From: a virus | Lineage: Duplodnaviria > Caudoviricetes | IMG/VR virus record: IMGVR_UViG_3300032233_000652 | Span: 1 to 31,612 of that record | DNA: 31,612 nt | Strand: one strand, 5' to 3' | Part shown: in pieces, positions 1 through 31,612 of the stretch | Layout: each line of letters begins with the position of its first letter | Position numbering within the stretch: position 1 is the first letter of the stretch | Program-made: the position numbers and the translations under genes | Notes under the pieces: generated by a model | What the model was told of the DNA's origin: nothing | The model's input: only the letters and a program-made list of their open reading frames with translations | Database searches by the model: none

Positions 1-2
1 GG

Positions 3-149
3 CTGTCCATGGAAGATGGGCGGTCGCTTTCCAATTTGGTAGCGTTTGGTATCGAATGGTATGTGGTACAGCGCAACGAAGCTGAGCAGGTAAAGACGCA
101 AACCAGTTTACGTACTGGCACAAGTCAAATGGCAAAGTGGGCTGGATAA
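3..149 (+). CDS. 3' part of a CopG/Arc-like ribbon-helix-helix DNA-binding protein (5' end outside window)
   Basis: Own translation: ...LSMEDGRSLSNLVAFGIEWYVVQRNEAEQ...KWAG*. The GRSLSNLxA..IE pattern matches helix B of cyanobacterial RHH proteins. TAA at 147-149. Confidence 0.6.
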   Translation: MSMEDGRSLSNLVAFGIEWYVVQRNEAEQVKTQTSLRTGTSQMAKWAG

Positions 150-156
150 GCGCATC

Positions 157-300
157 ATGGTTCTGTGGTCGGAACCCACGAAACAATGACGCCTGTAGAG
201 GGTCTACATAACTGAGGTGATGAGCCTTCGTGATCCGGCAGCGTTAAAAGCCTTATCGCCGTGGTGTGTGGCGCTTGAAATAACACACCAAACCAATTCC
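157..300 (+). ncRNA. Candidate structured non-coding/cis-regulatory RNA (possibly related to cyanophage manA/wcaG-type motifs)
   Basis: Intergenic. Hairpins at 159-165/170-176, 194-199/203-208, 214-218/224-228, 237-239/250-252 and 262-269/283-290, with a possible long-range pairing 187-192/241-246. Confidence 0.55.
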
Positions 301-309
301 CACGACTAA

Positions 310-507
310 GTGTCGTACAACGGCTGTAAGTACGTGCCCGAAGCTTTACAAGAACGTCTTTCTCGTCAATTCTGCGTGCTCATGGCCACACTAGTGGACT
401 GTGAGTGCGACTTAGAATGCATCCAAGAGCTAGAGCGCTCTTACAAACTTACTTCTTACAGTGGCGAGAAAGGATCCTTTTCCCAACGAATGGGACGATG
501 TGAGTAA
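310..507 (+). CDS. Hypothetical early protein
   Basis: 65-aa GTG ORF filling the gap after the structured segment and overlapping the next ORF. No recognisable motif. Confidence 0.35.
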   Translation: MSYNGCKYVPEALQERLSRQFCVLMATLVDCECDLECIQELERSYKLTSYSGEKGSFSQRMGRCE

Positions 508-2604: not shown

Positions 2605-2646
2605 GGGAGCGTGGCGGAATTGGTAGACGCATTCGACTCAAAATCG
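2605..2646 (+). other. tRNA-Leu(CAA) 5'-half, probable attP core (not a complete tRNA)
   Basis: GGGAGCG-TG-GCGGAATTGGTAGACGC-A-TTCGA-CTCAAAA-TCG gives the acceptor 5' strand, D arm and anticodon loop with CAA. No T arm or 3' acceptor strand follows. Lies ~100 nt downstream of the integrase. Confidence 0.85.
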
Positions 2647-2676
2647 GTGGGAATCTACGTTCCACTAAAAGATTCG

Positions 2677-2704
2677 AGCCGGGGGAAACCTCGGCTTTTC
2701 TTTT
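2677..2704 (+). terminator. Rho-independent terminator
   Basis: AGCCGGGG-GAAA-CCTCGGCT stem with a GNRA loop, followed by TTTCTTTT. Confidence 0.85.
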
Positions 2705-2806
2705 GGCAGTACTGCGTTTGGGTGGATTCCACTAGAGCATCATCTAATGGCGAAGTCTAGTTCGCAATTGGTAACAACGTTCAACTACACACATTGAAAC
2801 AACCCT

Positions 2807-5140
2807 ATGCCCACACCCGCTCAGATCGATGAGCAAATCGAATTTGAATTAAAAGCTCAAAGCTCAGGCATTCAGCAGCTCCACAGCAACACCCAGAAGC
2901 TCCTAGAGCGCAGCTACGGCAGCGCCACGGTATATGGGTGCGCTTCGATCAAAGCCGCCTTGCCAGCCGTTACGAGAATCATTGAGGCGACGCTCAACCG
3001 CATCCATGAACGCCACAACGGCAAATGCTTTGCGGAAATTCACCGTTACCTGCATCCCATCGAACCGGTAGCCGCCGCGTCGATTGCCCTAAAGATGGTG
3101 TTTGACAAAGTGACCAGTTCCCGGGAGCGCTCCAACGAGCTGGTTGAGGTGGTGGAGGCGATAGGGGCCGCTTTGGAGCAGGAAGCCCAGCTGCGTTGGT
3201 ACAAAGCCCAAGATCCCGACCTATTGGAACGGATCAAGAAGCGGTACTGGCACAGCAGCTGTGGAGCCCAGCAGAAGGTCACTGTGGCCCGCACGATGAT
3301 GAATCGCGCTGACTACCAGTGGGACCGTTGGAGCCGACCAGTCAGGGCCAAGTTGGGGGGTTGGTTGCTGGATTGCATTATTCAAGCCACCGACTGGTTT
3401 ACCCGAGACATCCGCCAACGGGGCAACAAGAAAGTGTCGGTTGTTATTCCAACACCAACATTCATCGCTGTCCGCGACAAGCTGATGACCGATGCGGAGT
3501 TATTTAGCCCGCTGGCGTGGCCAATGTTGATTGAACCCAATGATTGGACCAATGAACGTCAAGGGGGATACCTCCTTAATGAGGTAATGCGGGGGCACGA
3601 TTTGGTTCGTAGGGGCAAGGACGGATGTGTACAGGGAGAGGTGCCCTTGGCCTTTCTCAACCGGTTACAACGCACGGCCTACACATTAAACAACTTTGTT
3701 GTGGAAGTGGCAGAAGTGTTGTTGGAGCGGGGCTACAGCGTGGGGAAATTCTTACCCATCGTGGAAATCCCGATGCCGGTCAAACCCGTTGACATTGCGG
3801 AGAATGAAGAAGCGCGGCATGCCTACCGGCGAGCTGCTGCAGAAACCATGAACCGGAATGCTGCAGCCTTTCGGCGCAGCTGTCGTACCCGGCTGACGAT
3901 GAACACCGTAAAACTGTTTAAAGGTCGCGAGCGTTGGTATCTACCAGCGTCGTTTGACACACGAGGACGGTGTTATTTCATCCCAGCCACATTGACACCG
4001 CATGACACGGATTTTGGAAAGTCGTTAATCAAGTTTGCTGACCCATCGTTTATGACGGATGAAGCAGAAGGTTGGTTAGCTTTCCATGTAGCAACTTCTT
4101 ATGGTCTTTCGAAAGCCACCATGGCTGAACGCCAAGAGTGGACCAAAAGCAACCATGAATTGATTGCGCGTGTGGCATCAAATCCACTTGAGCAATTGAG
4201 CGAATGGGAAGCTGCTGATGATCCCTGGCAATTTCTCGCTGCTTGTGAGGAGTACAACGCCTGTGTCATTGAATGTTTAAGGCACTGGACCAACTTACCA
4301 GTTGGTGTTGATGCAACCTGCTCAGGATTACAGATCTTGGCAGCCATCAGTAGGGATGCCAACACGGCACGATTAGTCAACGTTATTCCATCAAGTCGCC
4401 CGCAGGATGCGTACAAAGTGGTGGCGGAGGCAGCCAAGCCAAAGCTACCCGCCCATCTAGCTGCTTTGTTAGATCGGAAGGTGACCAAAAAAGCCACAAT
4501 GGTTATCCCTTACAACGGGAGCCGTCACGCCATCAGATCGTACATCCGAGAAGCGTTACGAGAAAAAGGTGCTGAATTTACTCCCGATGAACTGACGTTA
4601 ATTACTAACGCAGTGTGGGGCAGCATGGAGGAAGTTATTCCTGGCGCCATGCGTGTCATGGAATGGATGAAGACAGAGGTTGGTAACGCATTTAAGCGCG
4701 GAGCTGATCATCTGGAGTGGGTCACTCCCACGGGCTTCCGTGTCTATCAAGATAGGCGCGTGATTAACTTAAAAACGATCAGGTTACAAATTCTTGGTCG
4801 TTGTGAAATAGAAGTGGGTGACGGTTTTAAGGGACCGGACATTGCACGGCACAAGTCATCGACAATGCCAAATGCAATTCATTCACTGGATGCAAGTCTT
4901 CTCCAACTTGCATTTCTCAGATTCAATGCACCATTTACTGTGATACATGACTGCGTGTTATGTAGAGCAACTGAGATGGGTGAATTGAACAGAGTTATTA
5001 GAGAAACCTTTTACGAGTTATTTGCACACAACAATTTCTTGCAAGATTTTGCGGAAATGCTTGGCGCAGAGACAGAGCCACCAATTATTGGTGACTTAGA
5101 TCTAAACTCGATCCACGAATCAACCTACTTTTTTTGCTAA
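2807..5140 (+). CDS. T7-like single-subunit DNA-dependent RNA polymerase (gp1)
   Basis: 777 aa. Motifs PMLIEP, FDTRGRCY, DATCSGLQ (A), RKVTKKATMVIPYNG (B), PNAIHSLDAS, IHDC (C) and C-terminal YFFC. Confidence 0.98.
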   Translation: MPTPAQIDEQIEFELKAQSSGIQQLHSNTQKLLERSYGSATVYGCASIKAALPAVTRIIEATLNRIHERHNGKCFAEIHRYLHPIEPVAAASIALKMVFDKVTSSRERSNELVEVVEAIGAALEQEAQLRWYKAQDPDLLERIKKRYWHSSCGAQQKVTVARTMMNRADYQWDRWSRPVRAKLGGWLLDCIIQATDWFTRDIRQRGNKKVSVVIPTPTFIAVRDKLMTDAELFSPLAWPMLIEPNDWTNERQGGYLLNEVMRGHDLVRRGKDGCVQGEVPLAFLNRLQRTAYTLNNFVVEVAEVLLERGYSVGKFLPIVEIPMPVKPVDIAENEEARHAYRRAAAETMNRNAAAFRRSCRTRLTMNTVKLFKGRERWYLPASFDTRGRCYFIPATLTPHDTDFGKSLIKFADPSFMTDEAEGWLAFHVATSYGLSKATMAERQEWTKSNHELIARVASNPLEQLSEWEAADDPWQFLAACEEYNACVIECLRHWTNLPVGVDATCSGLQILAAISRDANTARLVNVIPSSRPQDAYKVVAEAAKPKLPAHLAALLDRKVTKKATMVIPYNGSRHAIRSYIREALREKGAEFTPDELTLITNAVWGSMEEVIPGAMRVMEWMKTEVGNAFKRGADHLEWVTPTGFRVYQDRRVINLKTIRLQILGRCEIEVGDGFKGPDIARHKSSTMPNAIHSLDASLLQLAFLRFNAPFTVIHDCVLCRATEMGELNRVIRETFYELFAHNNFLQDFAEMLGAETEPPIIGDLDLNSIHESTYFFC

Positions 5141-30688: not shown

Positions 30689-30692
30689 TACA

Positions 30693-31612
30693 ATGGCTAC
30701 CACTCAGAATACTTATACAGGGAACGGTTCTACCGTTCTCTTTTCTTTTACATTCCCATATCTTGAAACCACTGACATTAAAGTAAGCGTCAATGGTACC
30801 ACCACAACTGCATATACACTTGCCAACGCTACAACGATACAATTTACAACAGCTCCAGCAAGTGGGGCCGCCATTAAGATCTATAGGGCTACAGATGATG
30901 CAACACTTCAAGCAACCTTCTATCCTGGATCTGCCATCCGATCCTCAGATCTGAACGATAACTTCACGCAGAACCTATATGTTACCCAGGAAGCCAATAA
31001 TGTAGCAGCTTCTGCGACAACAATTGCAGCTACAGCGCTATCAACTGCAAATACAGCATCTTCAAACGCCACCACTGCAGTCACTACAGCCAACAGTGCT
31101 GTCACCGCAGCCAACACAGCAACCAACACTGCGAACAGCGCGGTAACCACAGCCAATTCTGCAGCTGCTACCGCTGGGTCTGCCTCTACTAATGCGACCA
31201 CAGCTCTTAATACTGCCAACTCTGCATCGTCTTCTGCTACAAGTGCTACATCTACTGCCAATACGGCATTAAGTACCGCCAACACAGCACTATCTACTGC
31301 AAATACTGCATCAACTAACGCAACAACTGCGGTTACAAATGCAAACACTGCATTGTCTTCAGCTAATTCTGCTGTATCGACTGCAAACGCTGCCACAACA
31401 ACAGCTAACGCAGCATCAACATCAGCCACTGCAGCTGGTGTCACGGCAAATACAGCAACTACAACAGCTAATACCGCCAACAACAAGGCCGACCAGGCCA
31501 TTTCTGCTGTATCAAACTCAATCAACTATCAGCTAAAGACAAACGTTGCTGCTATCCCAGCGACCCCTGCCAACGATACTTACATTGAAGTACAGGATTC
31601 CACAGGACTTGA
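30693..31612 (+). CDS. Tail fibre protein (gp17-like), N-terminal part, runs off the window end
   Basis: Own translation: MATTQNTYTGNGSTVLFSFTFPYL...IYRATD...FYPGSAIRSSDLNDNFTQNLYVTQE is the T7-type fibre attachment domain. Frame stays open to the window end. Confidence 0.93.
   Translation, partial: MATTQNTYTGNGSTVLFSFTFPYLETTDIKVSVNGTTTTAYTLANATTIQFTTAPASGAAIKIYRATDDATLQATFYPGSAIRSSDLNDNFTQNLYVTQEANNVAASATTIAATALSTANTASSNATTAVTTANSAVTAANTATNTANSAVTTANSAAATAGSASTNATTALNTANSASSSATSATSTANTALSTANTALSTANTASTNATTAVTNANTALSSANSAVSTANAATTTANAASTSATAAGVTANTATTTANTANNKADQAISAVSNSINYQLKTNVAAIPATPANDTYIEVQDSTGL
31035..31500 (+). repeat. Degenerate 21-bp/7-aa repeat (AxxxANT-type heptads) in the tail fibre
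   Basis: ALSTANT ASSNATT AVTTANS AVTAANT ATNTANS..., about 22 heptads counted by eye. Confidence 0.8.

Follow-up and report, generated by a model that had tools for sequence, protein, structure and literature searches.

A conserved, uncatalogued leader RNA at the head of a T7-like cyanophage early operon, and its candidate role in antitermination

How T7-like cyanophages transcribe their own RNA polymerase gene across the terminator that lies behind attP is a question touched by a short intergenic region at the start of a phage contig. The window, by which we mean the whole stretch of 31,612 nucleotides that was analyzed, is an IMG/VR virus record and belongs to a T7-like cyanophage whose closest cultured relative in the phage collection is S-SRP01, a freshwater Synechococcus phage. 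A first-pass annotation, made from the sequence alone, had proposed that positions 157 to 300 encode a structured RNA controlling the early genes upstream of MarR and integrase. Homologues and covariation bear out the view that a conserved, structured RNA stands ahead of the early genes in a cyanophage, and gene annotation bears out its position. Comparative data indicate that it is a real, conserved and uncatalogued phage leader RNA. Its distribution among phages, which excludes that of boxA, is our main reason for preferring an antitermination-type leader over other functions.

The leader and its genomic setting

The flagged stretch is the intergenic leader of an early operon that encodes MarR, integrase and RNA polymerase, because positions 1 to 149 are the end of a ribbon-helix-helix gene, the following gene has its GTG start codon at 334, and positions 150 to 333 between them are intergenic (Table 1). 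A near-identical contig (L002), which extends 1445 bases further upstream, shows the start of the ribbon-helix-helix gene, beyond the first base of the window. The product of the first gene behind the leader matched no PHROG or Pfam family above cut-off, and two different first genes stand behind the RNA in different lineages. The first codons of this gene are boxA-like in the window (339-351) and its homologues, at 8-10 of 12 positions in carriers of the RNA; they are in frame and perhaps reflect coding constraint only. At the far end of the window (30691-31612), an Ala/Thr/Asn-rich repetitive open frame, typical of the start of a tail fibre, runs off the contig end.

Table 1. Coordinates of features in the window (position 1 is its first base)
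Feature	Position	Strand	Details
CopG/Arc-like ribbon-helix-helix gene, 3' end	1..149	+	Pfam RHH_5, E 3e-7, above cut-off; stop codon 147-149
Predicted host-type promoter	130..158	+	Weak -35-like hexamer 130-135, 17-base spacer, -10-like CATCAT 153-158
P1 hairpin (GUGG/CCAC), at predicted 5' end	165..179	+	4/4 pairs in 6/6 window-type sequences, loops differ; also in two further contigs
P2 hairpin	188..204	+	Consensus fold of 6 window-type sequences
A-rich single-stranded linker (C-Y-N-N-A-U-A)	204..211	+	C, A, A invariant in 27/27; AUA in 24/27
Px small hairpin, window's subfamily only	214..228	+	5/5 pairs in all 6; A-U/G-C exchange and U-G/U-A change
P3	230..259	+	Outer helix 230-234/255-259, 2x2 pyrimidine internal loop, inner helix 237-239/250-252, conserved loop L3 240-249
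P4, 13-base conserved loop L4 (270-282)	262..290	+	Two-sided change 267/285 in L073 and one further contig
P5 hairpin (ACGAC/GUCGU), variable loop	302..316	+	5/5 pairs in window-type; relatives have the same hairpin, loop lengths differ
P6 hairpin, into GTG start codon (334-336)	320..336	+	6/6 pairs in three relatives; 4/6, degenerate, in window
First gene behind leader, 57 aa	334..507	+	Start conserved in relatives
Transcriptional regulator (MarR)	1097-1501
Integrase	1467-2501
tRNA-Leu-like 5' half behind integrase, probable attP	2606..2645	+	tRNA, E 0.4
Intrinsic-terminator-like hairpin between attP and RNA polymerase gene	2676..2705	+	Presumed read-through target
RNA polymerase	2807-5140

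A hexamer with A at its second and T at its sixth position stands six bases before the first helix in all 30 homologues, and a purine follows this -10-like hexamer in 29 of the 30. We chose the list of variants from which this hexamer was taken, and a consensus promoter scan called none at its threshold in the window; the promoter is a prediction, as is the transcription start that we place near position 165.

Behind the integrase, the operon passes through the probable attP and a terminator-like hairpin before it reaches the polymerase gene. In related phages, attP has been shown to lie in tRNA-Leu, according to the relevant passages of PMC8776855. The tRNA-Leu half in the window differs from the word common to most relatives and may correspond to another tRNA-Leu target. 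Across the group, whether or not the RNA is present, a like hairpin with a U-tract lies ahead of the polymerase gene. The terminator is followed by a short conserved motif, TCCACT...CTAG, which is possibly an operator or a phage promoter; the CATCAT word before the window's polymerase gene is not conserved in relatives. A T7-like RNA polymerase, 36-40% identical to the window's, is encoded 2-3 kb downstream of the RNA in 5/5 divergent carriers tested. For LUZ100, a phage of related layout, terminator read-through has been proposed in the text available of PMC10134795.

Our consensus fold was built from six window-type sequences. P1 is absent from L026, L040, L041, L049 and L051 and is thus optional in the family, and in the wider family the place of P2 is taken by a hairpin of other sequence. 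Px gains a G-U to G-C change in a further contig. P3 and P4, separated by a linker of 2-3 bases, occupy the stretch from 65 to 125 bases after the predicted start. The element extends past the flagged 157 to 300, since two more conserved hairpins, P5 and P6, carry it to the start codon at 334.

The eight pairings named in the first-pass annotation are all present in the window as written, with every window row fully paired. Stems alone, however, are no evidence, because the single sequence folds no better than chance: against shuffles, z is -0.21 on the plus strand and -1.02 on the minus strand for positions 150-305 and -0.89 for 165-299, and folding energy is not significant across the family (28 sequences, z +0.4 to -2.1). 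The statement that stems account for nearly all of the intergenic stretch is accordingly right that the stems exist, but they are no more stable than shuffled sequence would give. Three distinct close relatives (L065, L073 and L074) separate the pairings further. The helix 214-218/224-228 is kept at 5/5 pairs in each of the three, with one two-sided change; 237-239/250-252 is kept at 3/3; and the core of 262-269/283-290 persists at 5-7 of 8 pairs. The helix 194-199/203-208 is also kept (5-6 of 6 pairs), yet it competes with a helix at 188-194/199-204 that the wider family backs. The remaining pairings break in these relatives: 159-165/170-176, which also straddles the predicted transcription start, retains 2/7 pairs, the alternative 177-182/227-232 retains 4/6, the pseudoknot 187-192/241-246 retains 4/6, and the alternative 158-162/291-295 retains 1/5. 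One of the two TGGYG words that had drawn attention, at 269, does fall in the conserved P4 loop, yet it is changed in 2/4 window-type sequences.

The proposal that mutually exclusive pairings make this leader a switch is therefore unsupported, because the three alternative or pseudoknot pairings beneath it are not conserved. All four window-type sequences examined can form a different alternative helix, 216-224/252-260 (8-9 of 9 pairs); it has no covariation of its own and is absent from the wider family, and in the window it lies 3.1 kcal/mol above the comparative fold. Switching through this helix is possible within the window-type subfamily.

Homologues, covariation and descent

We collected homologues from IMG/VR and metagenomes, using as anchor the conserved gene at 461-757 together with loop patterns. 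Twenty-nine distinct homologues were collected, of which L083 was dropped as chimeric-looking, and four near-identical divergent members (29-31 bits) were added; the homologues amount to about 30 distinct phage sequences, the cultured S-SRP01 included. In L083 (1235-1483) the P3-P4 part is fused directly to the RNA polymerase coding sequence, probably through chimeric assembly. At 10 of the 38 anchored loci, no such RNA is present in the available upstream sequence.

Covariation in related phages, which the first-pass annotation had named as one check, is strong among 19 sequences of the major type. In a sequence-only alignment of these, 96.7% of 304 cells are paired, compared with only 39-57% in slid controls, and two-sided change occurs at 9/16 pairs, a level that 0/500 shuffles reached. 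The seven-pair inner helix of P3 is 100% paired, with two-sided changes at 5/7 pairs, and the lower helix of P4 has two-sided changes at 4/5 pairs. In loops L3 and L4 and in the linkers, the sequence itself is conserved. The six window-type sequences are close kin and their covariation is weak (24/500 shuffles are as high for two-sided pairs); two further contigs aligned to the window add consistent and compensatory changes.

A model built from the major type (R1) matches only P4 in the window, at 15.7 bits, a score to be read against pattern-selected chance matches that reach 17.9 bits. Common descent is nonetheless supported, with the window form as the derived one, because the two forms share synteny and promoter spacing and because the integrase tree groups the window with the major-type carriers L049 and L051 at support of 100/100. 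More divergent carriers (L166, L170, L192 and L199) have a boxA tail word without a boxA core on both sides of P3-P4. In L170 and L199 (minus strand, ~575-800), members of a divergent T7-like group, the leader is longer, has a long 5' hairpin, and contains the P3-P4 module between two boxA-tail words. A pattern scan of 185,579 prokaryote genomes for chromosomal homologues returned 24 matches, none titled cyanobacterial, the best of which (17.9 bits) we judge to be chance. The sequencing-run listing shows no carrier of the RNA. Eight cultured marine or estuarine podoviruses (S-CBP1 whole, the early regions of seven others) gave no convincing model match.

Rfam 15, its riboswitch, ribozyme and C4 families included, gives no match to the window at gathering score; nothing meaningful appears at E up to 10 for the window's first 520 bases and nine loci, and none at E up to 1 for three further loci, so the RNA is uncatalogued there. 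Orphan cyanophage RNA motifs, namely manA, wcaG and PhotoRC, were reportedly described by Weinberg in 2010. Our RNA resembles them as a structured RNA of unassigned function in a cyanophage intergenic region and differs from them in lacking an Rfam match and in its context, a T7-like early leader; the same lack of a match rules out identity with manA or wcaG. We found no description of the RNA in the literature searched. The accessible portion of the S-SRP01 paper has no occurrence of promoter, terminator or antitermination (PMC8557907). Fremin et al. 2023 predicted 10,006 viral RNAs from IMG/VR, and the part of their supplement that was searched holds no match; our RNA may be among their unnamed candidates (PMC10690425).

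The conserved loops raise the prospect of a tertiary contact. A candidate contact of 3-4 pairs would join 240-243 of L3 to 272-275 of L4; its pairs are canonical in 27, 27 and 23 of 27 sequences, with one A-U/C-G exchange, between subfamilies only. We rejected it as a pseudoknot: it lacks covariation within the 19 major-type sequences, fits equally well when slid by two, and is lost in the L166 group. Both loops end in T-loop-like pentamers, compatible with a T-loop consensus. Two neighboring loops ending in purine-rich pentamers, on hairpins of similar length, are reminiscent of the interdigitated double T-loop of T-box stem I, RNase P and the L1 stalk, as the relevant parts of PMC4919913 and PMC3664808 describe it; unlike the T-box, our RNA has no specifier loop or T-box antiterminator, and double T-loop contacts are non-canonical and thus beyond the reach of covariation (PMC4919913, in the part available).

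Exclusion of boxA and a second upstream element

We searched early regions with a single pattern, the picocyanobacterial boxA taken from a published primer (PMC9769826, in the portion available to us), allowing at most one mismatch. Each of the six sister phages in which the RNA is missing next to the shared marker gene has a boxA match on the coding strand, 2.7-3.3 kb upstream of that gene; the pattern had been widened after four of these six matches were seen, which leaves only two fresh tests. The four matches inspected lie outside long reading frames and agree with the host boxA region at 13-18 of 20 positions. None of the 18 carriers has a boxA match in its early region, and 15 of the 18 have at least 4.8 kb of upstream sequence. 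Among cultured phages, S-CBP1, S-CBP3 and S-TIP37 have boxA-like sites (14, 17 and 18 of 20) and no match to the RNA model, and five of eight have neither boxA nor the RNA in the stretches examined. A host-type boxA with a multi-armed fold behind it is found in non-coding early leaders of the sister phages and of S-CBP3, S-TIP37 and S-CBP1 (L223:1501, L219:1501(-), L222:1501(-), L228:662(-), L118:4917, L119:459, L113:46339).

The integrase tree places the 18 carriers in a single clade (98/93) with the six boxA contigs as its sister group, and boxA is found further out as well, which suggests that boxA is the older state and was replaced once in the carrier lineage. Three further carrier lineages, which are not among the sequences of this tree, also lack boxA. 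Read in this way, the exclusion of boxA by the RNA rests on few evolutionary events, mostly one.

Does the RNA itself contain a disguised boxA? Taken alone, the linker is no more like the host boxA tail than expected by chance (5.2 versus 5.5 of 8), the sequence before the linker matches the boxA core at only 0-4 of 12 positions, and the loops scored as boxA reach a best match of 8.0 versus 7.7 of 13 in shuffles. L3 begins with a lambda-boxA-like word (7/8) in 10 of 23 major-type sequences; the hairpin loop that holds this word is closed, position 5 of the word is G in 13/23, and the window lacks it.

A second uncatalogued element of ~85 bases stands upstream of the ribbon-helix-helix gene, at L002:1250-1335 (~110-195 bases before window position 1) and at L001:5836-5925 in S-SRP01. 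It consists of an extended -10 promoter, an A-rich 5' end like the boxA tail, a covarying hairpin (two-sided change at 5/7 pairs in 13 sequences) and a very strong terminator (-22.7 kcal/mol), and it has no Rfam match. It co-occurs with the leader RNA in 28/28 anchored loci, and both are absent in 10; a pattern for the element found no new contexts among 11 new loci. It is likely a small RNA or an attenuator. An antisense relationship between the two RNAs, of the P1/P7 C4 or P4 CI immunity type, was rejected, since the cognate duplex has a mean rank of 12.5 where 12 is expected (23 phages). Paralogy is not backed by profiles: the two elements look alike by eye, and neither model R1 nor a profile of the upstream element links them. 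Between them lie conserved GTTACGA...GGACGCA words (L002:1360-1390 and homologues), a candidate operator or initiation signal that precedes the ribbon-helix-helix gene and other early genes. In L065-L067 the ribbon-helix-helix gene has been lost, and these words and both RNAs are retained.

What the RNA may do

Judged by distribution and position, an antitermination-like role is the likeliest. The fuller proposition, that a conserved multi-hairpin RNA at the predicted 5' end of the early transcript serves in cis as an antitermination or anti-pausing leader in place of boxA, is the one that we tentatively favor. Under such a scheme, host RNA polymerase would start at about position 165 and P1 and P2 would fold first; the A-rich linker and the adjacent P3 and P4, probably packed loop to loop, would then bind the elongating polymerase or NusA/NusG. 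The polymerase would thereby pass the terminator behind attP and, in relatives, also the U-tract that follows P4, and the phage's own polymerase would be made.

The proposal has counterparts in systems of known function. To our knowledge, hardly any antitermination RNAs that work without a protein are known outside HK022 and its kin. The passages of PMC9378689 that concern these put RNAs describe two stems behind early promoters that need no phage protein. Like HK022 putL and putR, our RNA would act in cis through two adjacent interrupted stems with a very short linker behind a predicted early host-type promoter, and no phage protein partner is evident (PMC9378689, same passages); no N-like family occurs among the early proteins scanned, such proteins being hard to detect. 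The put RNAs are ~70 bases long, come in two similar copies and bind the beta-prime zinc-binding domain of E. coli polymerase, as those passages have it (PMC9378689). Ours differs in its extra hairpins, its conserved apical loops of 10-11 and 13 bases and its cyanobacterial host, and the two leader elements have no likeness to each other that profiles detect. We regard it as a working analogue of HK022 put, not as a member of put. The comparison with rrn and lambda nut is also instructive: the AUA of the linker, present in 24/27, equals the trinucleotide reported critical for NusA binding, the sister phages have a host boxA in the early leader, and lambda antitermination survives deletion of boxA and needs the NusA-binding spacer, although our RNA, unlike these systems, has no boxA core within it (sections seen of PMC2724277, PMC3177189 and PMC9769826; the lambda deletion from PMC2724277).

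Among the observations that speak against antitermination are the U-tract at the end of 19 of 23 major-type sequences, which suits a discrete small RNA equally well, and the very strong terminator that follows the upstream twin at once, which is awkward for an antiterminator. It is conceivable, if unlikely, that the RNA is instead an independent small RNA, ~120-145 bases long, that has a promoter and a terminator of its own and works in trans alongside the 85-base RNA, for instance by serving as a decoy of a Nus protein or some RNA-binding protein of the host. The predicted start at the first helix, the U-tract, the different first genes downstream in different lineages, and the make-up of the upstream element and its strict co-occurrence with the leader all accord with that reading; but the U-tract is found in 0/4 window-type sequences and is weak in L026 and L040, the P4 stem, with its large conserved loop, is weak as a terminator (five cases, -8 to -14 kcal/mol), and no second promoter is seen for the downstream genes. 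No intrinsic terminator was called in the window's first 1200 bases. The lack of a terminator to control in the window type weighs against an attenuator or riboswitch-like sensor, in which a ligand, protein or tRNA at the P3-P4 loops would choose between termination and read-through. Such a sensor would account for loops and linkers conserved in sequence beside freely covarying stems, for the T-loop-like pentamers and for the possible three-pair contact between L3 and L4 with its single exchange between subfamilies, and the helix 216-224/252-260 would offer it an alternative state; we consider it quite unlikely, as no antiterminator helix is conserved, the alternatives proposed in the first-pass annotation break, and the contact has the failings given above. 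Pairing of the linker with the U-tail can be seen by eye in a few members, and the window type lacks it.

Early leaders of T7 carry RNase III sites, and a hairpin stands at the predicted 5' end in most members of our family, so that the 5' hairpins and compact fold could steer cleavage of the early mRNA or shield it from nucleases of the host, and P5 and P6, the latter covering the start codon, could tune translation of the first gene. This we find distinctly improbable, since the helices here are short and interrupted compared with the long substrates of RNase III, and protection alone leaves the invariant loops and the exclusion of boxA unexplained. A new class of self-cleaving ribozyme would suit a compact phage RNA with conserved unpaired bases; it is extremely improbable given that no Rfam ribozyme matches even at E up to 10, that the RNA begins at the predicted transcription start, where cleavage would be of little obvious use, and that no pseudoknot is supported.

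The cis-acting antitermination leader thus remains our preferred reading. A bolder version of it, which we hold to be somewhat doubtful, would make P3-P4 a new class of cis antitermination RNA and the first for cyanobacterial RNA polymerase and T7-like phages, a loop-to-loop fold that supplants NusB/NusE-boxA and gates the phage polymerase across the attP terminator, with the 85-base RNA as its regulatory twin or a Nus decoy.

An uncatalogued fold that is mutually exclusive with boxA lends itself to a direct test, as a carrier, S-SRP01, is in culture with its host. Whatever its function, the leader constitutes a new conserved family of phage RNA, common to phages with polymerases that are only 36-40% identical.
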